A stretch of 64,000 bases of DNA from Gammaproteobacteria bacterium (GCA_003645455.1 QNFE01000003.1:1442-65441); one strand, 5' to 3'. Shown: positions 4,894 through 64,000, counted from the first letter of the stretch. The notes: generated from the letters alone by a model not told the origin. Program-made: numbers and translations.

Positions 4894-6386
4894 AAATTTT
4901 TATATTGATATTGTTGCTATTTTCAAATAGTGCAATAGCATGGAAAAATTTTGAAAACATAAATGTCCCAAAAATAATAAAACCAGACGCTAAACAAAGA
5001 TTATTGTTAAAAAAGGGCATAACAGCAATACAAAAAGATAATCTCAAAGAAGCTTTAAATAATCTTGTGCCCATAGCAGATATGGGTTATCTCAAAGCAT
5101 CAGTGAGTTTAGCAAAATACCTATATAAATCAAAGCATATGAAGCTATTCAAGTTATCCCATAAATATCATTATATAGCAGCAAAACACAATATGTGGCA
5201 AAGTCAAGTGGTTATATCATATGCTTACCTACAAGGAGACTACACAAAAAAAAATTTTTTAATGGCAAGGTATTGGTTGGATAAGGCAGCTTATAATGGA
5301 GGTGGCTCTCAGATAGATTCTTTGTATGAGAAATTAAATCAAATCTCTTATAAGCAGGCTAAAATACTGATAGAACAAAAAAAATACAATGCGGCTGAGA
5401 AAATTTTAAAACCCATGGCAAAGATAAGATACAAAAACAGCAAATCTTTGTTAAATAGCATCCAAAAAATTGGCAAAAATGGAGAGAAAAAACAAAAAAT
5501 AGTAGAAAAATTGAATACAAATAATGGTAAAAAAAAGCAAGCAGCAACACAATATCATCTTGCCATTACATATCTAAAAGACAAAAATATTTCAAAAGAA
5601 AAACAACAACGGGCATTAAAATTATTAAAAAAATCAGGTGCTCCTGGAAACTCTTCTGCTCAGTTTAAGTTAGGGCTTATAATGTTAAAAGGTGATCTCA
5701 TAAAACAAGACATAAAACAAGGAATTCACTGGTTAAGAATGAGTGCCGAACAAGAAAATAAAGATGCTCAGTATACTCTGGGAGTGTATTATATATCAGG
5801 AACTAAAATTCCAAAAGATGATTATGAAGCTCACAGGTGGTTCAAACGTGCATCTAATAATGGTCATATAAAAGCCACCCATAATCTTGGTATAACATAT
5901 CTATACGGTATAGGGGTATCATCTGACAAGCCAAAAGCCATGTATTGGCTCAACAAAGCTAAAAAAAATGGCAATTATAAATCGTCCCAAATATTAAAAA
6001 ATCAAAATAATAATAGGGCATCATACAAGGAAAATAAAAAATATAAAAATCATAAAACACATGACAAAAAAGAAATTTACGAAGCAGTTAAGGGTCATAA
6101 TTGGTTTTCAAGCATAAAGGGTAGCGATAAGTATAGCCTGCAATTGTTAGTAGCTTTTAATTTCGATACTTTGTTAAAATTCTTAAAACAAAATAATATA
6201 AAATCGTCATATTTTCATTATAGCCGTAAAACAGATCAGTCCCAAAAACAACATATTTTAATCTATGGTATTTTTGATGATTATGAGAGCGCTTTTGCTT
6301 ATGCTAAAAAAATATCAAATGATTTTAAAAAATTTAAACCATGGGTTAGGAAAATATCTGCAATTGAGGATGAGACAAAATTATAA
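4890..6386 (+). CDS. Secreted Sel1-repeat protein with C-terminal SPOR (peptidoglycan-binding) domain
   Basis: Signal peptide; Sel1 repeats (AQYTLGVYYISG..., ATHNLGITYLYG...); C-terminal YSLQLLVAFNFDTLLKFLKQ...ILIYGIFDDYESAFAYAKK resembles SPOR; ATGA overlap with upstream gene. Confidence 0.55.
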   Translation: MKIFILILLLFSNSAIAWKNFENINVPKIIKPDAKQRLLLKKGITAIQKDNLKEALNNLVPIADMGYLKASVSLAKYLYKSKHMKLFKLSHKYHYIAAKHNMWQSQVVISYAYLQGDYTKKNFLMARYWLDKAAYNGGGSQIDSLYEKLNQISYKQAKILIEQKKYNAAEKILKPMAKIRYKNSKSLLNSIQKIGKNGEKKQKIVEKLNTNNGKKKQAATQYHLAITYLKDKNISKEKQQRALKLLKKSGAPGNSSAQFKLGLIMLKGDLIKQDIKQGIHWLRMSAEQENKDAQYTLGVYYISGTKIPKDDYEAHRWFKRASNNGHIKATHNLGITYLYGIGVSSDKPKAMYWLNKAKKNGNYKSSQILKNQNNNRASYKENKKYKNHKTHDKKEIYEAVKGHNWFSSIKGSDKYSLQLLVAFNFDTLLKFLKQNNIKSSYFHYSRKTDQSQKQHILIYGIFDDYESAFAYAKKISNDFKKFKPWVRKISAIEDETKL

Positions 6387-6390
6387 AAAC

Positions 6391-7392
6391 ATGAATAATA
6401 ACAGCAATAATAAAAATCTATTGATAGATAAGTTTAACCGTCCAATAAAATATTTAAGGATTAGTGTCACGGATAAATGTAATATGCGTTGTTTTTATTG
6501 CCTACCAAAGGATTATAGAGATTTTACAGTTCCAGAGCGTAGGTTGAATTTTATTCAAATTGAAAAAATTGTGAATGCTTTTGCAAATCTTGGAGTGCAA
6601 AGTGTGCGCTTAACCGGAGGTGAGCCTTTGGTTCGTGCTGGAATTTGTGATCTTGTGCGAACCATAAAAAACAATAAAAACATCACGGATCTTTCAATGA
6701 GTACCAATGCGAGTTTATTGATAGATAAGGCTTATGATTTGAAACAAGCAGGTTTGGATAGATTAAATGTCAGTTTGGATTCTATGAATCCCAAAACTTT
6801 CCATGATATAACCTGTGGTTTTAAATTATCAGATACATTAAATGGATTAGAGGTGGCTAAAAAAGAGGGCATAACTCCCATTAAAATAAACATGGTCATT
6901 ATGAGGGGCATCAACGATAATGATATAGATAATATGATAGAATACTGTATGGAGAATAAATTTGTTTTAAGGCTTATTGAGGCTATGCCTGTTGGTATAG
7001 GAGGTCGCAAAGCACGCGATTATTATATCAATCTTAACGAGGTGATTGACGATTTAAAACAAAAATATAATTTAATAAAAACAGAATTTATGGGTTCTGG
7101 TCCTGCAAAATATTATAAAATAATGGACACTAATTTTAAAATTGGCTTCATAACACCAATATCACAACATTTTTGTGATGCTTGCAACAGAGTAAGGCTT
7201 TCGGTGGATGGAATGTTGTATCTATGCTTAGGGGAGGATAATAAAGTTGATCTGAGACGGCATTTGATGCAAAATATATCCGATGATGGTTTGGAGCAAA
7301 TTATCAAAGATGCTATATTAAAAAAACCAGAGAAGCATACTTTTTCAAAAGAATCAACAACATATAGACCCATGTCTTTTACTGGAGGTTAA
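6391..7392 (+). CDS. moaA: GTP 3',8-cyclase MoaA (radical SAM)
   Basis: LRISVTDKCNMRCFYCLP CxxxCxxC motif; GGEPL; C-terminal CDACNRVRLSVDG. Confidence 0.85.
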   Translation: MNNNSNNKNLLIDKFNRPIKYLRISVTDKCNMRCFYCLPKDYRDFTVPERRLNFIQIEKIVNAFANLGVQSVRLTGGEPLVRAGICDLVRTIKNNKNITDLSMSTNASLLIDKAYDLKQAGLDRLNVSLDSMNPKTFHDITCGFKLSDTLNGLEVAKKEGITPIKINMVIMRGINDNDIDNMIEYCMENKFVLRLIEAMPVGIGGRKARDYYINLNEVIDDLKQKYNLIKTEFMGSGPAKYYKIMDTNFKIGFITPISQHFCDACNRVRLSVDGMLYLCLGEDNKVDLRRHLMQNISDDGLEQIIKDAILKKPEKHTFSKESTTYRPMSFTGG

Positions 7393-7399
7393 TATTGTT

Positions 7400-8008
7400 A
7401 TGAATAAACAGCAATACTGGGATAATATCTATGACAACAAAAATCATAATGAGTTAAGTTGGCACCAAAGCATGCCAAAAATATCGTTAGATCTTATCAA
7501 AAAAACAAAAATAAAAAATCATATTATGGATATAGGAGGAGGAGCATCGAGTCTATTAGATAATTTGTGTGAAGCAGGATATGATAATTTATCAGTTCTT
7601 GATATATCACAGAGCGCTATAAAAAAGCTTCGTCTGAGATTGGCAAAATTTAATACAAAAATTACTTACTATGTATGTGATATTACCAAATTCAAAGTAA
7701 AAAATAATGAATATAATCTATGGTATGATAGGGCAGTTTTTCATTTTTTAATTCATCAACAGGACAGAAAAAAATATCTAACAATATTAAAAAATACACT
7801 CAAAAAAAAAGGTTTTGTTATCATAGCAACTTTTAACAAAAATGGACCTAACATGTGTAGCGGTTTAGAGATAAGAAAATATGACCAAACAAAAATCTGC
7901 CAAGAAATGGGTGATGATTTTAAATTGATAACAGCAATTGATGAAAATCATCTAACCCCATCAGGGGCAACCCAAACATTTGGTTATTTTTTATTCCAAT
8001 ATTTGTAA
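7400..8008 (+). CDS. Class I SAM-dependent methyltransferase
   Basis: MDIGGGASSLLDNL motif I-like; roughly 200 aa. Confidence 0.5.
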   Translation: MNKQQYWDNIYDNKNHNELSWHQSMPKISLDLIKKTKIKNHIMDIGGGASSLLDNLCEAGYDNLSVLDISQSAIKKLRLRLAKFNTKITYYVCDITKFKVKNNEYNLWYDRAVFHFLIHQQDRKKYLTILKNTLKKKGFVIIATFNKNGPNMCSGLEIRKYDQTKICQEMGDDFKLITAIDENHLTPSGATQTFGYFLFQYL

Positions 8009-8013
8009 TTTTT

Positions 8014-8298
8014 ATGCAAAAAATAATTTTTATAATTCTATTGTTTTTATTATTGACCTTGCAATATAGATTTTGGTTTGGTAAGGCAAATTATAATCAG
8101 TTACAAGATCTGCAAGAGCGCATAGAGACATTAAACCAACAGATAGAGACAATGAACAAGCAAAATAGAGAATATGGAGCAAAAGTGCAATTACTAAAAA
8201 AAAGACTTGATGCGGTTGAGGAATATGCTCGATATGAATTACATATGAAAAAGAAAAATGAAGAATTTTATCCGCTTGATAAAAATCTTGCAAAATGA
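8014..8298 (+). CDS. ftsB: Cell division protein FtsB
   Basis: N-terminal TM then coiled coil; sits immediately upstream of ispD as in many gammaproteobacteria. Confidence 0.65.
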   Translation: MQKIIFIILLFLLLTLQYRFWFGKANYNQLQDLQERIETLNQQIETMNKQNREYGAKVQLLKKRLDAVEEYARYELHMKKKNEEFYPLDKNLAK

Positions 8299-8966
8299 TT
8301 ACAGCCATAATTCCTGCCGCAGGGTGTGGGCAGAGAATGAAAAACAAAACCCCAAAACAATATTTAAAAATTGCTGATAAAACTATTTTAGAGTGGAGTT
8401 TGCAAGAATTTATATCTCATCCAAAAATAGATAAAATAATAATCGCTATCAACAAAAATGATAATTTTTTTAAAACAACTAATCTTATAAACATCAAAAA
8501 AATAACAACCTGCATCGGGGGAGATAGTCGTTTTGATAGTGTTTATAATGCGATGAGAACGATAAAAAACGAGGACGATAATTATTTTGTGATAGTGCAT
8601 GATGCCGCTCGTCCGTTATTTAACAAAAAAGATTTAAACAATTTATTAGAGGCAAAAAATGATAGTGGAGCGATTCTTGTTGCCAATATTAATGAGACTG
8701 TAAAAAAAGTTATCAATGGCAAAATTCAAAAAACTCTCAATAGGGACAACTTATACCGGGCTTTAACACCACAATTTTTTAAACTTAGCTTATTAAAAAA
8801 AGCCTTTGAAAATGCCAAAAATAAAAAAATAAATATAACGGATGAATCGATGGCAGTTGAAAATTTAGGAGTTAATCCTGCGATTATCATAGGAGATGCC
8901 AACAATATAAAAATCACGACCAAAGAAGACTTAGATTATGCGAAAGAATTACTAATTTCATCGTAG
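8295..8966 (+). CDS. ispD: 2-C-methyl-D-erythritol 4-phosphate cytidylyltransferase
   Basis: MITAIIPAAGCGQRM... IspD N-terminal signature; VHDAARP. Confidence 0.85.
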   Translation: MITAIIPAAGCGQRMKNKTPKQYLKIADKTILEWSLQEFISHPKIDKIIIAINKNDNFFKTTNLINIKKITTCIGGDSRFDSVYNAMRTIKNEDDNYFVIVHDAARPLFNKKDLNNLLEAKNDSGAILVANINETVKKVINGKIQKTLNRDNLYRALTPQFFKLSLLKKAFENAKNKKINITDESMAVENLGVNPAIIIGDANNIKITTKEDLDYAKELLISS

Positions 8967-9062
8967 CGGACGAAAATAATTAATAATTAACAGTTATTAG
9001 TTAATAGTGAACGGACAACCAAAATCCTCCACACAACAAAAATCCCACAAAACCAAAAAACC

Positions 9063-9215
9063 CCGTCATTGCGAGGCGGACGGAAAAATGATGTAATATC
9101 AAGCACTTAAACCGCCACGGCAATCTCTTGAGGGGATAACGGACACCCAAAGAGATAACCACGGCAGTTGATTGCACCAGTTCCTCTTTTCTCTCCGTCT
9201 GCCTCGTTATGACGG
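9063..9215. repeat. MITE family 1 copy (TIR CCGTCATTGCGAGG...CCTCGTTATGACGG, about 150 bp)
   Basis: Terminal inverted repeats visible; near-identical copy at 12110..12261; related copies at 32822-32990, 33790-34022, 34545-34728, 61370-61560, 63695-64000. Confidence 0.7.
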
Positions 9216-9315
9216 TTTTTTTTAGATTTAGAATAGAGTTTTTAATTCTCAATTATCCATTCTCAATTTTCAATTATCCTCGTCTGCCTTGTTTTAAATT
9301 CCACCTTTTAAATTA

Positions 9316-31449: not shown

Positions 31450-31508
31450 AATATGCTACTTTATAACAAGAGGACACGCTACCTTGTGGAAGCCCTGATT
31501 AACTACTA

Positions 31509-31529
31509 ACAAGGGGACATGTCCCCTTG
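31509..31529. repeat. 22-nt perfect palindrome ACAAGGGGACATGTCCCCTTG(T)-type mini-element copy
   Basis: Same palindrome at 60387-60408, 60619-60640 and 62561-62582; imperfect second palindrome at 31466-31487. Confidence 0.6.
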
Positions 31530-31603
31530 CTAAAATGTATTTATTATTTATTCTTATAATTATTAGAGCTTTATTACCAAATCTTTCTTTTAATAAAAAA
31601 ATT

Positions 31604-32785: not shown

Positions 32786-32821
32786 AGTTCCACCAAAACA
32801 AACAAATAAAATAAAATAAAA

Positions 32822-32990
32822 ACCCCCGTCATTGCGAGCGTAGCGCGGCAATCTCCTAGGGCAGACGGACACCCAAAGAGACTGCCACGGCATCCTGCCT
32901 CGCAGTGACGGTATATTTTAAGAGACTGCCACACTGCACTTCGTTGCATTGCTGTGACAGAGTTTTTTCGGAGAGATTGTCGTGCAAAAA
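32822..32990. repeat. MITE family 1 copy
   Basis: CCGTCATTGCGAGCG...CGCAGTGACGG termini. Confidence 0.6.
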
Positions 32991-33789: not shown

Positions 33790-34022
33790 TGTCATAAAAA
33801 ATAATCCCGTCATAACGAGTGACAAAAACCTCGTCATTGCGAGCGAGCTTGCGAGCGTGGCAATCTTTTGGGGTTTGTCCTGTCTTGTTTGCAGGTCTAA
33901 TAGCACCCCAAGAGATTGCTTCGTCGCTACCGCTCCTCGCAATGACGGGACTCTATTAAGAGATAACCACGGCGGATAATTGCTCCGTGTTTCATCCTTT
34001 CTCCGTCTGCCTCGTTATGACG
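33790..34022. repeat. MITE family 1 copies (composite)
   Basis: Multiple GTCATTGCGAG / CTCGCAATGAC / CGTTATGACGG motifs. Confidence 0.55.
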
Positions 34023-34544: not shown

Positions 34545-34728
34545 CATAAAAAATAATCTCGTCATTACCTAACTTATACAATTGCGAGCAACAGAATCCC
34601 GTCATTGCGAGGAACGAAGAGACAAAGCAATCTCTTTGGGTAAAAAGAGAGACTGCCACGCTCGCAGTGACGAAAACCCCCGTCATTGCGAGGAACGAAG
34701 CAATCTCATAAGGTCAGACGAACACCAA
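34545..34728. repeat. MITE family 1 copies
   Basis: GTCATTGCGAGGAACGAAG motifs. Confidence 0.5.
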
Positions 34729-34960
34729 AGAGACTGCCACACTCGCAAGCTCGTTCGCAGTGACGGATTCTTTTAAGAGACTGCCACACTCGCAAGCTCG
34801 CTCGCAGTGACGGATTCTTTTAAGAGACTGCCACACTCGCAAGCTCGCTCGCAGTGACGGATTCTTTTAAGAGACTGCCACACTCGCAAGCTCGCTCGCA
34901 GTGACAGTATATTTTTTGCTTGCTCGCAGTGACAGTATATTTTTTGCTCGCTCGTTATAA
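34729..34960. repeat. Tandem repeat, 47-nt unit (AGAGACTGCCACACTCGCAAGCTCGCTCGCAGTGACGGATTCTTTTA), about 4.5 copies, derived from MITE family 1 sequence
   Basis: Units begin at 34729, 34776, 34823, 34870; nearly identical. Confidence 0.7.
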
Positions 34961-58746: not shown

Positions 58747-59991
58747 TCAAAGCCATTCTGCAATGACTTTGATATAATCATCTAAATTCTTTATGCTGTC
58801 ATTAGGAGATGATTTTGAGCTGGAATTGCTTGCAGGTAAGTTATGAGCAATATTATTCCTGATATTATTTATTTTTTTAAAAGTCTTGCCTATTTCTATT
58901 TCTTTTGTTGATAATTTTTTGTTGTTCTTATAATCACTCCAAGAAAATAAAATATCCTTAGCTTCTTTTCTGTTATCTTTATTTGTGTCGTCTAATTTTT
59001 CTTTTTTGCACATAATAGATACACTTGCCTCAGCAAGGCACATATACGCCATAGAAAAATTTTTATTTTCATGATACCATTTAGATAAATTAAGTTGAAA
59101 TTCTGGCAGTGATTGATTTTTGAATCTATTAAAAAAATCTTCTAAATCAGAAGCAATCAATGGCAATATTTTGTTGGATGATGTTTTAAAATTATCAATA
59201 GTTTGTGATAAACTGTTTATGCTTTTTTGTAAGGATCTCATATCTGAAATACTAATGGCATCAGATAATTGATTAAATTTTCCTGAAATATTTTTGTCAT
59301 CAATGTTGGTATTAATTAGTTTTTTAAGTTCAAAACTGTTACCATAGTTTTTAAGATTACTAATTGCCTGACCCCAACTTAACAACTCATAAAATATAGA
59401 AACATCTATGATTACAGAAGCCTCATCTTTTTTTAACATAGCATAAAAGATTCCTTTTATCTTAAAACCTGCACGAATTTTGCCAAATTCTGCCACAATT
59501 AAAGACATTATAGAATGAGACCTAAAAAGATGAGTAATGTCTAAATACAACTGATCTTGCTCGCTTAAGTTCTCTATTATTTTTTGAAATTTTTCAAAAA
59601 TACCCCATAATTCCTCTTGATTGTCTCCTGGAAGCACAACAAAACACTCAGATCCAGGTAATTTTTTACTAATTTTATCATTAAGTGGCTGTAAAAAGCA
59701 ATCATCAATATCTGCATTTTCTTTTTTTTCTAAAATTTTATATGCATAGTCACTGTCATCATTATCACTATAAATTTCGTTAATATTGTCCCACATTGAT
59801 TCGCTTGTACCAATTAAAAATAATCTATCAATTTTATACTTTTCAATTATAGGGTTGGTGGCATATTGTTGATTTCTATATAACTTATTGTTATTTTCAA
59901 ATTTGTAAGTAGTTGTAGTATAATTGTTTTTATTGTTATCGTTTTTAGCAGATTTGCCAGTTCCCAGCAAACTTATAAGAATCTTTGCCAT
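58747..59991 (-). CDS. Csx1/Csm6-like CARF-HEPN protein
   Basis: N-terminal CARF signatures (AKILISLLGTGK...; DITHLFRSHS); C-terminal HEPN R-X4-H (NNIRNNIAHNL); adjacent to CRISPR array. Confidence 0.6.
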   Translation of the reverse strand: MAKILISLLGTGKSAKNDNNKNNYTTTTYKFENNNKLYRNQQYATNPIIEKYKIDRLFLIGTSESMWDNINEIYSDNDDSDYAYKILEKKENADIDDCFLQPLNDKISKKLPGSECFVVLPGDNQEELWGIFEKFQKIIENLSEQDQLYLDITHLFRSHSIMSLIVAEFGKIRAGFKIKGIFYAMLKKDEASVIIDVSIFYELLSWGQAISNLKNYGNSFELKKLINTNIDDKNISGKFNQLSDAISISDMRSLQKSINSLSQTIDNFKTSSNKILPLIASDLEDFFNRFKNQSLPEFQLNLSKWYHENKNFSMAYMCLAEASVSIMCKKEKLDDTNKDNRKEAKDILFSWSDYKNNKKLSTKEIEIGKTFKKINNIRNNIAHNLPASNSSSKSSPNDSIKNLDDYIKVIAEWL

Positions 59992-60243
59992 TATTGTCAT
60001 TCCCCCCTATTTTGTAAAAAATTACACAATAACACAAAGTATGTTGATAAACAAAATTATCTTTTAAGGTTTTATGCTGTTATTCAAAGCAGGTAAAATA
60101 TTTGGCAAAGATTGGTCAGATATTAGGCTCAAATGAATCATGTCTTTGTGTTTAATTTTTTCAATCGACAGATATCAAGAACTGTAGCTATTTTTATAAT
60201 TGATAGGCCGTTTTTATACATTGGTTTGGACTATATTATTCTC

Positions 60244-60796
60244 ACCCTTATTCCCTCCCTTCTCTTTGTGCTTTACTAAATGCAGCCTCTTGGATATTTA
60301 ACAGTTAACAGTTATTAGTTGAGTTATCACTATTAATTTTTAACTATTCATTATTAACTATTTCAGTCGGGTCTCGGTCTCTGACAACAAGGGGACATGT
60401 CCCCTTGCCAAATTAGGGTGTCTTAATCCCCTCGGTGTTTTGTAATTGACAGAGGTAGTTAGAAAATTAGTATATTTGTGCCAGTGGTGAATTTTTAAAA
60501 AATAAACATAACTTGTTATGTTGTTTTTTACAAAATTTGACAATGGTGCAAAGATGCTGATTTAATGACTGCCTATGTTGATTACAAGACGCCATATGTC
60601 GGGTCTCGGTCTCTGACAACAAGGGGACATGTCCCCTTGTCAATAAAATAACCAGGTCTTAATCCCCTTTATGTCGAGCTTCTAATAATTGAAAATGGAG
60701 AGTTGATAATTGAGAATTTTGCATAACCTTACCTTGTGTTTTGTTTTATCCCATAATTTTGTTATACACAATTTTTGATTTTTAATTTTCAATTAT
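60244..60796. CRISPR. Degenerate array end: three split CRISPR repeats, each interrupted by a 100-165-nt insertion, with two spacers derived from the palindromic mini-element
   Basis: 5-prime repeat parts at 60246-60262, 60420-60437, 60656-60676; 3-prime repeat parts at 60366-60385, 60595-60617, 60797-60820; spacers 60386-60419 and 60618-60655. Confidence 0.55.
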
Positions 60797-61266
60797 TGTC
60801 GTCGGGTCTCGGTCTCTGACTTTAATAAACTTACGGCACTTATGCAATGTAAAAGCAGTCTTAATCCCCTTTATGTCGGGTCTCGGTCTCTGACCGAAAG
60901 GTTTTGTTCGTTCTGTTTCGTATACGAAAGGTCTTAATCCCCTTTATGTCGGGTCTCGGTCTCTGACCCTGTCAGTTACTGATGGTGGGATTAAAGATGC
61001 GTCTTAATCCCCTTTATGTCGGGTCTCGGTCTCTGACCAGAAGAAGTAATCGCCTGAAGAGGTAGTAAAATACAGTCTTAATCCCCTTTATGTCGGGTCT
61101 CGGTCTCTGACACAGAAATAATTGGTCGTGGCGAATGGCATAGTGCTTTGTCTTAATCCCCTTTATGTCGGGTCTCGGTCTCTGACTCTACCTCCTGTTT
61201 TTCACTTTTAAAAACAATTACTTACAGACCCCCGTTAACGGAAATCTGTCGTAGCGAAAATCTGAC
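60797..61266. CRISPR. CRISPR array: 37-nt repeat GTCTTAATCCCCTTTATGTCGGGTCTCGGTCTCTGAC, 5 full repeats (60858, 60931, 61001, 61075, 61150), one partial leading repeat, possible degenerate terminal repeat 61227-61266; spacers 33-40 nt
   Basis: Direct inspection: identical 37-mers regularly spaced with unique 33-38-nt spacers. Confidence 0.85.
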
Positions 61267-61369: not shown

Positions 61370-61560
61370 CTGCGGTCGCGATGCTTTGTTTCTTCGTTTC
61401 TGGCAATGACAGTTCATCCGTCACTGCGAGCGAGCTTGGCGAAACGTGGCAGTCTCTCTTTTTACCCCAAGAGATTGCTTCGTTCCTCGTAATGACGGCA
61501 ACGAATTACCTAACTTATACAGCAATGACGGCTCCCTAAAAGAGATTGCCATATTCACAC
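61370..61560. repeat. MITE family 1 copies between array and cas operon
   Basis: GTCACTGCGAGCGAGC..., CTCGTAATGACGG, CAATGACGG motifs. Confidence 0.5.
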
Positions 61561-61588
61561 ACTCACTTGCAATGATGAGGTTTAATAA

Positions 61589-61861
61589 TTAAAAAGGACA
61601 GTCATCATCATAAGCAGTATAACCGTTATTGTTATTATAAGAGTTGTGTTTTTGATAGACTTTGCAGAATATTTCCATATTTGTGACTATTTCTTGGAAT
61701 ACTGTCCGATCTTCATAGGCGATATGAAATGGAGCATCGTTTATCATCTGGTCGGTTTTTTTGGCAATTATTGCAGGATCGATAAAATAATCAGGCAACA
61801 GACGAGCTGCATTAATTTCTTGGGTTATTAAATCACATCTTAAATCGTGCTTGGTTTTCAT
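61589..61861 (-). CDS. Hypothetical 90-aa protein, last gene of cas operon (ATGA overlap with cas2)
   Basis: No motif recognised; two Cys near C-terminus; not convincingly Cas4. Confidence 0.3.
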   Translation of the reverse strand: MKTKHDLRCDLITQEINAARLLPDYFIDPAIIAKKTDQMINDAPFHIAYEDRTVFQEIVTNMEIFCKVYQKHNSYNNNNGYTAYDDDCPF

Positions 61862-62160
61862 TTATTTCTCCTTATTTTAGTAAAATTTTTTGGTAAAAGA
61901 TAATCTAATGGCGTATCTTTGCCATAGATTGAAATTTTGGTTTTTTTATCAAAACGATATATTTTTATATCATCTTGTTTTGGATCAATTATTTTATTAA
62001 TATCTGTTTGATATTCTAAGATTTGTCTGTTCGTTGTGTCTGCCATATATACCGAATATTGAATAGGCAAGGTTATGGCACACAGGTATTGGTGAACTTT
62101 TCTCAATCGTTTTTTGCATTTTATATCGTAACAAATTAAATATAAATTTGTATGTGCCAT
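61858..62160 (-). CDS. cas2: Cas2 (copy b)
   Basis: LYLICYDIKCKKRLRKVHQYL...IQYSVYMA...DDIKIYRF Cas2 signature. Confidence 0.7.
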   Translation of the reverse strand: MAHTNLYLICYDIKCKKRLRKVHQYLCAITLPIQYSVYMADTTNRQILEYQTDINKIIDPKQDDIKIYRFDKKTKISIYGKDTPLDYLLPKNFTKIRRNK

Positions 62161-62163
62161 TTT

Positions 62164-63255
62164 TTAAAATAACTCCGCTTGAATGGGGGTTGTTATATTT
62201 AACACTACATCGTCATCGTTGTCATTGATGAGGCTGTTTTTGAGTTGATAACTTTGTAATCTTAACCATCTTCTGTATGGTGGTAGCCATTTTTCTAATT
62301 GATGATAATAGATTTTACGCCCTGTTTTTGATAACAAGCATTTTTTAGCATTTTTAATAAAATGTTCTTGGCGAATATCTTGCTCGGCAAACAAACGCCA
62401 GATAAAATATTCCGCCGAGGGGCGAATTGGCTCTATTATATCAGAGGCAAGAGCAGCATGATTGTAGGATGGTTTATGTAGAAAACCTATGTATGGATCC
62501 AGACCTGCTTGATATTAACTCGGCAGTTAAATACATGTATTCAACTTCCCATAAGAACTAACAAGGGGACATGTCCCCTTGTCAAAATAGAGAAGTTTAT
62601 TGTTGCCAGTTTAATAAATAGCTTTGACAGCTTGGCTGTATAAAATTGTATAAGTCAAAGACAACACCGAATTAACAGGATCTGGGGCAGGATGTTTGGC
62701 TCGTTTGGTAAAATTCAAAGATGGAGCAAATAATTGAGTATAGGCTTGAAAGAAAAATTTGGAGGCACAGCCTTCTATACCGAGTAACTGGTTGGTATTG
62801 ATGGGTTCTGTCAGAGATTTATTTGTCAATAAAAATTTTAATTTATCATAGGTTTGCTGTAAAATTTTATCTTTATCGGTGCGAGTGCTGGTGATTTTTT
62901 TAATCAATTTTAGCTGTTTGGTGATTTTGTTGGTAATTTGATGGGTTGCCAGATTAAGCGGAATATCTTTTTTTTCTAACCATCTATATTGTGAGATTCT
63001 GCCTTTGGCATCTTTGTGAGGCGAGCCAAAGATTATGACAGGTTCCACTGATCTTTTGTTGATAAAAACAATGCTGACATTATGCTTTTGGCAAGCATAT
63101 AATAACTTGGCGTTGAGATTGCAGTGACCGTAGATTATTATTCTCTCGATGAGCTGCAAAGGTAAGGCTTGATAAGTTTTATCGGCTTTGAGTTTGATCC
63201 TTTTGCCATCGGTATCAAGGTTGATGTGTTGTTTGTCAATATAGATTGTTTTCAT
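62164..63255 (-). pseudogene. cas1: cas1 interrupted in frame by a 96-nt palindromic mini-element insertion (62518..62613) carrying stop codons
   Basis: N-terminal part ends ...LSLTYTILYSQAVKAIY*; C-terminal part resumes QAGLDPYIGFLHKPSYNHAALASDIIEPIRP...; same frame on both sides; catalytic E/H/D present. Confidence 0.7.
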
Positions 63256-63263
63256 TTTAGTTG

Positions 63264-63557
63264 TTATCCGATATATATCATATTGTTTTCAGCAGGCTTC
63301 AAAGCAATGCCACAGGTTATCAGAGGATTATTTTTAGGTAATTTTATGATTAGAAAACGATCTGTTTTTTTGTTTAGTTGGGGGATGATCTGGTTTTTTA
63401 TATTCTGGCAATTTGCCGGGGTCAGATAACACTCATAGACCGATTTTTGCCATTGATAAGAATAGGATTGCAAAATCTTGCATATACGAGATCGGGTGTT
63501 ATGACAACTTATGTCATAGGATAATAAATAAAAATGATTATTTGGTTTTAAGCTCAT
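63264..63557 (-). CDS. cas2: Cas2 (copy a), upstream of cas1
   Basis: HFYLLSYDISCHNTRSRICKILQSYSYQWQKSVYECYL...DRFLIIKL Cas2 signature. Confidence 0.65.
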   Translation of the reverse strand: MSLKPNNHFYLLSYDISCHNTRSRICKILQSYSYQWQKSVYECYLTPANCQNIKNQIIPQLNKKTDRFLIIKLPKNNPLITCGIALKPAENNMIYIG

Positions 63558-63694
63558 AACAACAATGGTGGAATTAAAAAAAACCACTATTGTATATTAT
63601 TTTTTTAAATATGTGTTTTATGACAAGCTTGTCATTTTTTTTGGCGAGTAAAAATAATGCCAGTCCATTTTTTAAGTGGTCAGGGTGGTTATCT

Positions 63695-64000
63695 CTTTTT
63701 GAAGTCGTCATTGCGAGGAATTCGCCGCAGAGCGGATACCGTGGCAATCTCTTGAGGGTTTAGTGTGTAACCTCAGGAGATTGCCACGGCTACGCCTCGC
63801 AATGACGGGGTTATGTTTTGGTGCTGTTGCGGTGTTTTATATTAACTTATTTCTTGTCTGCGAATTACCTAACTTATACAGCAATGACGGGGTTTTTTGT
63901 GGCAGTCTTTTGGTTTAGCCAAGAGATTGCTTCGCTACGCTCGCAATGACGGCTCCCTAAAAGAGGTTGCTTCGTTCCTCGCAATGACGGGGTTTTTTGT
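63695..64000. repeat. MITE family 1 copies (window edge)
   Basis: GTCATTGCGAGGAATTCGCC...CGCAATGACGG repeated. Confidence 0.55.

Follow-up and report, generated by a model that had tools for sequence, protein, structure and literature searches.

A 100-nt mini-element with TA duplication splits cas1 in a type III-A-like CRISPR-Cas locus and has most probably ended spacer acquisition

Can a CRISPR-Cas (clustered regularly interspaced short palindromic repeats and associated genes) locus still acquire spacers when its cas1 gene is divided by a short palindromic insertion, and what kind of element divided it? The question is raised by a cas1 gene that lies in two pieces within a 64-kb stretch of DNA (64,000 nucleotides of GCA_003645455.1, QNFE01000003.1:1442-65441; GC content 32%), which we call the window and whose positions serve as coordinates throughout. 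We are highly confident of the following joint explanation, which we consider the best one: a 100-nt miniature inverted-repeat transposable element (MITE) that duplicates a TA dinucleotide has inserted into codon 214 of cas1, and the Cas1 protein is in consequence most probably dead and the acquisition of new spacers lost.

The interrupted gene and its empty site

The window's cas1 is read from the minus strand, where translation from 63255 gives 214 residues ending TYTILYSQAVKAIY before it meets a TAA at 62613-62611. The same frame resumes with a TAT at 62514 (TAT CAA GCA = Y Q A G L D P), continues through YQAGLDPYIGFLH...DIIEPIRP and stops at 62164. On the Pfam profile Cas_Cas1 (PF01867) the first piece covers positions 1-208 (E 5e-40) and the second positions 208-283 (E 6e-21), and thus the break falls on a single profile position. 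Alignment with 14 intact Cas1 proteins finds all of the conserved residues, E161 in the first piece and the His, Asp and Glu in the second. The insert carries three in-frame TAA stops, the first of them directly after Y214, and neither half of the gene contains any further stop or frameshift. The initial annotation had proposed a cas1 split in frame by a palindromic mini-element, with TAA stops inside the insert and intact catalytic residues on both sides of it, and in each of these respects the gene is as it described.

An uninterrupted allele defines what was inserted. Clustered with the truncated protein at 90% identity is a 329-aa uninterrupted Cas1 (P0122) from another JGI metagenome, encoded on a contig (L091) that holds cas2, the uninterrupted cas1 and the start of the next gene. 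With the insert removed, the window's Cas1 is identical to it at 311 of 329 residues (94.5%), and the window gene minus 102 nt is 990 nt long, equal in length to the intact gene. The intact allele reads GCT ATC TAT CAG GCA, with one TAT, and the filled site reads ATT TAT, then TAAACTGG...GAGTTAATAT, then CAA GCA (that is, TAAACTGG...CCGAGTTAA TAT, then CAA GCA GGT); in BLAST, the single TAT at L091 1420-1422 aligns to window 62616-62614 and again to 62514-62512. Because L091 has this single TAT at the exact insertion site, it represents a true empty site, and the comparison assigns the TTAA ends to the element itself and the TA to the duplicated target. A duplication of the 3-nt TAT would be compatible with the cas1 site but is incompatible with another copy of the element (in contig L082, see below), and TA is found on both sides of the copies in the window, L082 and L089.

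More distant homologues, against which the initial annotation had proposed to define the boundaries, lead to the same element of 100 nt with a TA target-site duplication. The 14 intact Cas1 proteins, which are 26-38% identical to the window's, have no residues at the position of the insert, and the resulting gap of 34 columns, or 34 codons, means that the extra DNA amounts to 102 nt and not to the 96 nt first estimated. It can be placed at 62513-62614 or, equivalently, at 62515-62616, and consists of the 100-nt element and the 2-nt duplication; the figure of 96 takes in no more than what lies from the first TAA up to the second TAT. A comparable insertion as a natural part of Cas1 is found neither among the 14 homologues nor in L091.

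The two alleles also bear on the age of the event. Between the window and L091 genes, the synonymous divergence (dS) is 0.53 and the ratio of nonsynonymous to synonymous divergence (dN/dS) is 0.057, with similar values in both halves, and therefore cas1 has been under strong purifying selection for nearly the whole time since the two strains diverged. Taken together with the lack of other lesions in either half, and with the empty-site allele, this low ratio argues that the insertion is recent, as had been supposed. Such a pair of filled and empty cas1 alleles, associated with a type III system, is natural material for testing the cost of losing adaptation.

We propose that a non-autonomous MITE would have inserted at the TA of codon 214 (TAT), duplicating it, and would thereby have supplied a TAA directly after Y214, two more in-frame stops and a strong terminator-like hairpin. 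The 214-aa product, which is NCBI RLA08817.1 (locus tag DRQ51_01315, from the metagenome-assembled genome, MAG, named Gammaproteobacteria bacterium) and identical to P0001, would retain the conserved Glu alone, and the His, Asp and Glu would be left in a piece without a canonical start ahead of them. The first canonical start after the insert is indeed a TTG at 62394, 3' of all three residues. A functional Cas1 carries Glu, His and Asp/Glu on one polypeptide, and here these residues are divided over two pieces with stops between them. Since the His, Asp and Glu are stranded behind stops in this way, the Cas1 integrase is most probably dead and spacer acquisition with it, to judge from the sequence. 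The interference genes upstream look intact. The hairpin is terminator-like when read in the sense of cas1, and any polar effect of the insertion would reach the second cas2, which follows cas1 and may therefore be affected too.

The element, its family and its spread

On the sense (minus) strand of cas1 the element reads TTAAACTGGCAAC...TTAACTGCCGAGTTAA, and its terminal inverted repeats (TTAAACTGGCA / TTAACTCGGCA, given as reverse complement) are imperfect, with one indel. The whole element folds into one long hairpin (-32.7 kcal/mol, z -3.85) around the perfect 22-nt palindrome ACAAGGGGACATGTCCCCTTGT, which on the sense strand has a terminator-like score, a 12-bp stem and a T-rich tail. It has the size of a MITE, and all of its frames are too short for a protein. 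In Rfam, nothing in the whole window reaches the gathering threshold and the only match on the insert is a chance snoRNA (E 0.57).

The arms of the cas1 insert have no second copy elsewhere in the window. JGI metagenome contigs were scanned for the palindrome plus five flanking bases, so as to tell a mobile element from captured phage DNA, and most matches came from metagenome Ga0164315, at 30-34% GC, near the 32% of the window. The family comprises five full-length copies, including the one in cas1, and four partial or diverged ones, all with different flanks and different neighbouring genes (DUF4276 and KilA-N; lipid A acyltransferase and HAD hydrolase; AAA ATPase; HTH protein). The full-length copies have the termini TTAAACTGG...CCGAGTTAA in common and are mostly flanked by TA. 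The diverged copy in L074 is free of stops and lies in frame inside an open reading frame (ORF) for a 758-aa DNA methyltransferase (...DLHKNQQGDMSPCHKRDVNCCQF...). Given the size, the inverted repeats, the TA duplication and the multi-copy family, every structural hallmark of a MITE is present save an identified autonomous partner. A duplicated TA is a pointer to a transposase of the IS630/Tc1-mariner type. The element duplicates its TA target on insertion, the one feature on which the assignment to this group is based, and we infer that it would have been mobilised in trans by a DDE transposase of this TA-duplicating type.

Table 1. Features of the window and of related contigs (L numbers); positions without a contig name are those of the window.
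Feature	Position	Strand	Remarks
cas1 5' piece	62611..63255	(-)	214 codons ending AVKAIY, then element-borne TAA; ORF list, translation, Pfam
cas1 3' piece	62164..62514	(-)	Y + 115 codons + stop; conserved His, Asp, Glu; Pfam
MITE	62515..62614	(-)	100 nt; boundaries from empty-site allele L091, family alignment, nhmmer
Duplicated TA, left copy	62615..62616	.	part of codon TAT (Y214); filled site ATT TA / element / TA T CAA
Duplicated TA, right copy	62513..62514	.	empty-site comparison with L091; family copies
Central palindrome	62561..62582	.	22 nt, perfect; terminator-like on cas1 sense strand
cas2, upstream of cas1	63264..63587	(-)	Pfam CRISPR_Cas2 E 6e-15; same gene order in L091
Second cas2, downstream of cas1	61858..62160	(-)	Pfam CRISPR_Cas2 E 6e-16
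CRISPR array	60366..61186	(-)	37-nt repeat GTCAGAGACCGAGACCCGACATAAAGGGGATTAAGAC (minus strand), 7 spacers
Palindrome-bearing trailer-side spacers	60618-60655, 60386-60419		38 nt and 34 nt; bounded by partial repeats
Hairpin element in CRISPR repeat	60677..60800	.	4-nt GTCG duplication; separates spacer A from main array
Second hairpin insertion	60433..60595	.	two 79-nt arms, 72% complementary; divides repeat between the two palindrome-bearing spacers
Sister MITE family, half copy	31488..31530	.	same palindromic core, arm GGAAGCCCTGATTAAC; intergenic
Full-length copy	L082:2054-1955		97% identical to cas1 copy
Full-length copy	L089:1741-1840		97% identical to cas1 copy
Full-length copy	L079:462-363		90% identical to cas1 copy
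Full-length copy	L085:2210-2311		
Diverged copies	L074 (11068-11170), L075		
Half copy	L083		
MmeI/Eco57I-type methylase genes with in-frame palindrome	L032:748-4485; L090:7846-10551; 36 of loci L004-L069		

Several observations weigh against this explanation. Neither the window nor the fetched loci yielded an autonomous element, a transposase with matching ends or a pair of ends at the spacing of an insertion sequence (IS), and scans of IMG/VR for the element ends gave hits in about the number expected by chance, none of which nhmmer recognised as a real copy. The inverted repeats at the element's ends are imperfect as well as short, and a 2-nt TA duplication alone is weak evidence in a genome of 32% GC. 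The 64-kb window holds a single full copy, and the others come from a different metagenome, Ga0164315, whose relatedness to the source organism is judged by GC content and by the repeat families in common rather than by shared genes. Within the window there is no second cas1, and one is possible elsewhere in the genome. Finally, conservation within the family is highest at the central palindrome and not at the termini, which is atypical for a MITE of the DDE type.

This last feature is what would be expected if the element were REPIN-like (REPINs are hairpins formed by paired repetitive extragenic palindromic, or REP, sequences), with the central hairpin recognised and spread by an HUH/Y1 enzyme resembling a REP-associated tyrosine transposase (RAYT) and not by a DDE transposase; the outcome for cas1 would be unchanged. 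The most conserved part, the 20-nt palindrome, is common to two families with different arms, the second being a sister MITE family with arms GGAAGCTCTGATTAAC, of which full two-arm copies occur at L089:1366 and in L073, L084 and L086. In a scan of one genome per species for the 20-mer CAAGGGGACATGTCCCCTTG, we find 66 loci, mostly in Bacteroidota, Chlorobiota, Ignavibacteria and Cloacimonadota, the source MAG not being among them. At most of these loci the 20-mer lies inside very long open frames, where it is read as RGHVPL, and 36 of the 66 are homologous to one gene type, a type IIG methylase of the MmeI/Eco57I class into which a domain resembling Y1_Tnp / REP-associated tyrosine transposases is inserted. 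Within the methylase genes, including that of L090 from the low-GC metagenome, the palindrome is in frame, often in tandem or as a pair separated by about 1 kb, with three tandem units in L090.

Against a REPIN-like origin stand the target duplication and the terminal inverted repeats of the cas1 copy, both of which are absent from REP/REPIN and IS200/IS605-type elements, and the central position of its conserved unit. Moreover, the Y1-like domain scores 40 bits against an NCBIfam cut-off of 80 and, in Pfam, 28.5 against 23, just above the threshold; no Y1-like gene is present in the window, the RAYT-like domains are found only inside type IIG methylase genes, and their association with the palindrome is one of co-occurrence only. 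We thus consider spread by such an enzyme unlikely. A full-text literature search for the palindrome, the peptide RGHVPL and fusions of RAYT with restriction-modification genes returned nothing relevant, and the PARCEL repeats (PMC2996958) have a different motif. The palindrome is very widely distributed and its biology appears to be undescribed.

Within the window, the half copy of the sister family stands between two ORFs that, from their translations, are probably a phosphate-transporter-like and a UDP-glucose-dehydrogenase-like gene. The same intergenic region holds a degenerate palindrome, ACAAGAGGACACGCTACCTTGT (17/22 positions), at 31466-31487, 43 nt upstream of the copy at 31509.

A copy of the element is also carried by a phage. 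When IMG/VR was scanned for the 20-nt palindrome, two contigs were found, L070 and an 18-kb contig that gave L071 and L072, with 11 and 20 palindrome copies, respectively; L070 and L072 are 99.9% identical over 7.2 kb. L070 is a tailed phage with genes for portal, prohead protease, virion structural protein, Tail_P2_I, tail collar fibre, baseplate J and endolysin. Between its baseplate J and endolysin genes lies a 3'-truncated copy of the element (L070:10037-10122), 94% identical to the cas1 insert over 86 nt (E 2e-31), in which homology begins exactly at the element's left junction and the last ~16 nt are absent.

From this likeness one could argue that the insert is phage DNA which entered cas1 through illegitimate or microhomology-mediated repair, with no transposon involved. 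Besides the 94% identity to the region between the baseplate J and endolysin genes, there is similar sequence past the right junction (TATCAAGCAGGTC in cas1 and TATCAAACAGATC in the phage), and the apparent start of the endolysin gene falls inside the homologous stretch. The unit is found with both of its ends in at least four non-phage contexts, however, including the right end TTAACTGCCGAGTTAA that the phage lacks, and so the phage copy is a truncated one and not the source of the boundaries. We dropped the capture of phage DNA once the metagenome scan had given the complete right end in non-phage contexts; the family alignment largely refutes it, and we regard it as very improbable. The MITE family is common to a bacterial lineage and to the tailed phage that the lineage's spacers resemble (94-97% identity), which is direct evidence of mini-elements travelling with phages.

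Some further features of the phage contigs may be recorded here. Beyond the element's right end, the phage (L070:10117-10140) and cas1 (62498-62514) are identical at 10/12 or 11/13 positions, a likeness of flanks that could reflect target-site preference or chance, and the phage endolysin gene apparently starts at the ATG of the element's inner ACATGT. L070 and L071 have about one palindrome per kilobase. Those of L070 all lie between ORFs of at least 70 aa, except for a spurious 5' extension of the endolysin ORF, and L071 contains, at 5254-5339 and 8351-8442, in-frame tandem repeats of 33 and 36 nt (LTRGHVPLP...) in ORFs 5055-6416 and 7892-9112.

If a MITE did enter cas1, the insertion might still be tolerated, with Cas1 made either by ribosomal bypassing, from take-off at one TAT to landing at the other, or from two polypeptides that reassemble. 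The TA duplication gives identical TAT codons on each side; the first is followed at once by UAA, and the gap contains a strong hairpin. NCBI annotates in the 3' piece a 112-aa ORF from a CTG start that includes the His, Asp and Glu (P0121, P0123), and each half remains an open frame. With 99 nt, however, the gap is about twice as long as the 50 nt of T4 gene 60, and its hairpin lies elsewhere than at the take-off site. That the codons match is a trivial consequence of the duplication, the gene is split within the catalytic helical domain, and the open halves are explained equally well by recency. We give tolerance very little credence, and loss of Cas1 remains our preferred reading.

The CRISPR array and further insertions at the locus

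The locus is a type III-A-like CRISPR-Cas system with the gene order cas2-cas1-cas2. A public assembly that extends past the right end of the window (L001) encodes Cas10/Csm1, Csm2, RAMP proteins and accessory genes (precomputed Pfam), so that its gene table places Csm1_B/Cas10 palm, Csm2_III-A and RAMPs upstream of cas2-cas1-cas2, and an array accompanies them. The two cas2 genes that flank cas1 (window 61858-63587) are different, of 107 and 100 aa, and the arrangement is the same in the intact strain L091. A 417-aa ORF downstream of the array (58747-60000, minus strand) probably encodes a CARF-HEPN nuclease ancillary to the type III system: it matches Csx1 CARF weakly (E 0.003), and close to its C-terminus it contains the motif RNNIAHN.

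The palindrome of the cas1 insert recurs in the window, with four matches to the 22-mer against none expected from shuffles. The initial annotation had listed further occurrences at 31509, 60387 and 60619, of which the one at 60619 is, like that at 62561, exact, and those at 31509 and 60387 have one mismatch at the last base. None of the three is a copy of the element: the insert has only a common core of 25-27 nt with them, those at 60387 and 60619 being CRISPR spacers with the core only and that at 31509 belonging to the half copy of the sister family.

Two hairpin insertions, both unrelated to the cas1 element, divide repeats next to these spacers. When the one at 60677-60800 is removed, the halves of 21 and 20 nt, less the 4-nt GTCG duplication, give the exact 37-nt repeat; an end of this element recurs at window 9244-9277 and in L080. 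Removal of the one at 60433-60595, of which no other copy was found, restores 35 of 37 nt. Since both removals rebuild repeats, the array originally had seven spacers, two with the palindrome at the trailer end and five others. Spacer A matches L070 at 29/29 and L071 at 31/32 positions, and for spacer B the match is 31/34, to a site that occurs three times in L071; full-length identical protospacers of the two spacers are absent from IMG/VR. The palindrome core is in the two spacers because these came from palindrome-rich foreign DNA, for which the best match is the tailed phage that carries the MITE copy. Counted from the repeat border, the first 22-26 nt (AACAAGGGGACATGTCCCCTTG...) are common to both spacers; beyond them the two differ, and their best matches are different phage sites. 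This shared boundary suggests that capture was biased at the hairpin.

On the minus strand the repeat ends ...AAAGGGGATTAAGAC, with a GGGGA..AAGAC end, and we take it to resemble type III-A repeats. Read from this strand, both palindromic CRISPR RNAs (crRNAs) would be antisense to the sense strand of the best-matching phage sites. The Rfam CRISPR-DR8 matches to the repeats are sub-threshold and on the plus strand. We tentatively prefer transcription from the minus strand. The spacers have 26-27 nt in common with the cas1 insert, at the end far from the crRNA tag, and the 12 guide bases beside the tag are unpaired with it. Because pairing is confined to the end far from the tag, self-targeting looks unlikely in view of how type III systems are activated.

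The same geometry bears on the idea that the units at 60387 and 60619 are regulatory mini-arrays, comparable to Cre, that steer the Cas complex to the palindrome in cas1. Each unit does resemble a spacer between half repeats that retain only their spacer-proximal parts, and both have the 26-27 nt in common with the insert. The half repeats, however, are explained by the two hairpin insertions into ordinary repeats, and the joined halves rebuild the repeat; the spacers are of normal length (38 and 34 nt) and leave the 12 tag-adjacent guide bases unpaired; and the intact L091 allele means that the insert is no native part of cas1. As the units do not stand alone once the hairpins are removed, we rejected a Cre-type or self-targeting mini-array, which we hold to be extremely improbable.

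The cas1 element and the two hairpins, which sit in precisely the repeats beside the palindrome-bearing spacers, thus make three hairpin-element insertions within 2.3 kb. It is conceivable, if doubtful, that these hits are non-random and reflect either an insertional anti-CRISPR delivered by phage or the escape of the host from type III autoimmunity, with an undescribed hairpin-recognising mobilisation behind both. If the former were true, phages would deliver mini-elements that disable CRISPR adaptation; if the latter, there would have been selection to silence spacers and adaptation after the matched palindrome had spread in the host's own genome. The movement of a 20-22-nt palindrome between phyla, in type IIG methylase genes, phage proteins and MITE cores, suggests such a mobilisation.

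A second family of GC-richer mini-elements (...GAGACTGCCAC...CTCGCAGTGACGG...) is found at 34728-34905, 61380-61590, 63690-64000, 32800-32910 and 33830-33950. It forms a tandem array with 3.8 copies of a 47-nt unit, lies to either side of the cas1-cas2 module, and occurs also in the phage contigs, at up to 100% identity over 32 nt.

The window is 100% identical around the insert in three other public assemblies, L001 (ERZ27227324), L002 (ERZ27245762) and L003 (Logan SRR6478866), the first two of which cross the whole insert and the last of which stops inside it; these assemblies may share reads, and so their agreement excludes an assembler-specific error without proving independent samples. 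That the insert is an assembly artefact of its perfect palindrome has a next to negligible probability, for even though palindromes break de Bruijn graphs, and a contig from Logan and another from ENA break off at a palindrome copy or beside one (at 62588 and 60403, respectively), two other assemblies cross the insert at 100% identity, and its clean transposon-like junctions with the TA duplication enclose a member of a family that is present elsewhere.

Comparison with known systems

Translational bypassing is known from T4 gene 60, with its 50-nt gap, and from the mitochondrial byp elements. With these the split cas1 shares matching take-off and landing codons, a stop after the take-off codon and a structured gap that is probably derived from a mobile element, but the gap is about twice as long and the hairpin lies away from the take-off codon.

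REPINs are not known to make a target duplication and have their conserved REP units at the ends of the hairpin. As in REP/REPIN and RAYT systems, a short conserved palindrome is dispersed and co-occurs with a Y1/RAYT-like domain; unlike them, the cas1 element has a TA duplication and a central conserved unit, and the RAYT-like domain forms part of a type IIG methylase gene, with no such elements at its flanks.

Bacterial MITEs that duplicate TA and are mobilised by IS630/Tc1-mariner transposases include Correia in Neisseria, RUP in Streptococcus pneumoniae and Nezha in cyanobacteria. The cas1 element resembles them in being about 100 nt long and non-coding, in its terminal inverted repeats, TA duplication and whole-element hairpin, and in having many, mostly intergenic copies with occasional disruption of a gene. 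The likeness drawn here is one of features, and the element differs in its short imperfect repeats and in a conserved central palindrome that occurs also outside the element.

Palindromic mini-elements inside protein genes are also known as Rickettsia palindromic elements, which are typically ~150 bp long (PMC10969869). These are usually kept in frame as part of the protein, whereas the cas1 copy has three in-frame stops and truncates it; within our family, such in-frame retention is seen only in the diverged, stop-free copy of L074, which is thus similar to the Rickettsia elements.

The closest precedents for the outcome are natural insertions of IS elements and MITEs in cas genes, which have been documented by a database survey that includes MITEs inside cas genes (Nat Commun 2023, PMC10359306). 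Here as there, a transposable element lies in a cas gene and inactivates part of a CRISPR-Cas system. The disabling of a cas gene by a transposable element is thus already known in nature, and the present case is an ordinary MITE knock-out of cas1. It differs from the surveyed cases in that the gene hit serves adaptation, the locus is of type III and the organism is uncultured, with a natural empty-site allele and a copy of the element in a phage. What it adds to them is this allele, the phage-borne copy, two further hairpin insertions in the array and a widely dispersed palindrome.

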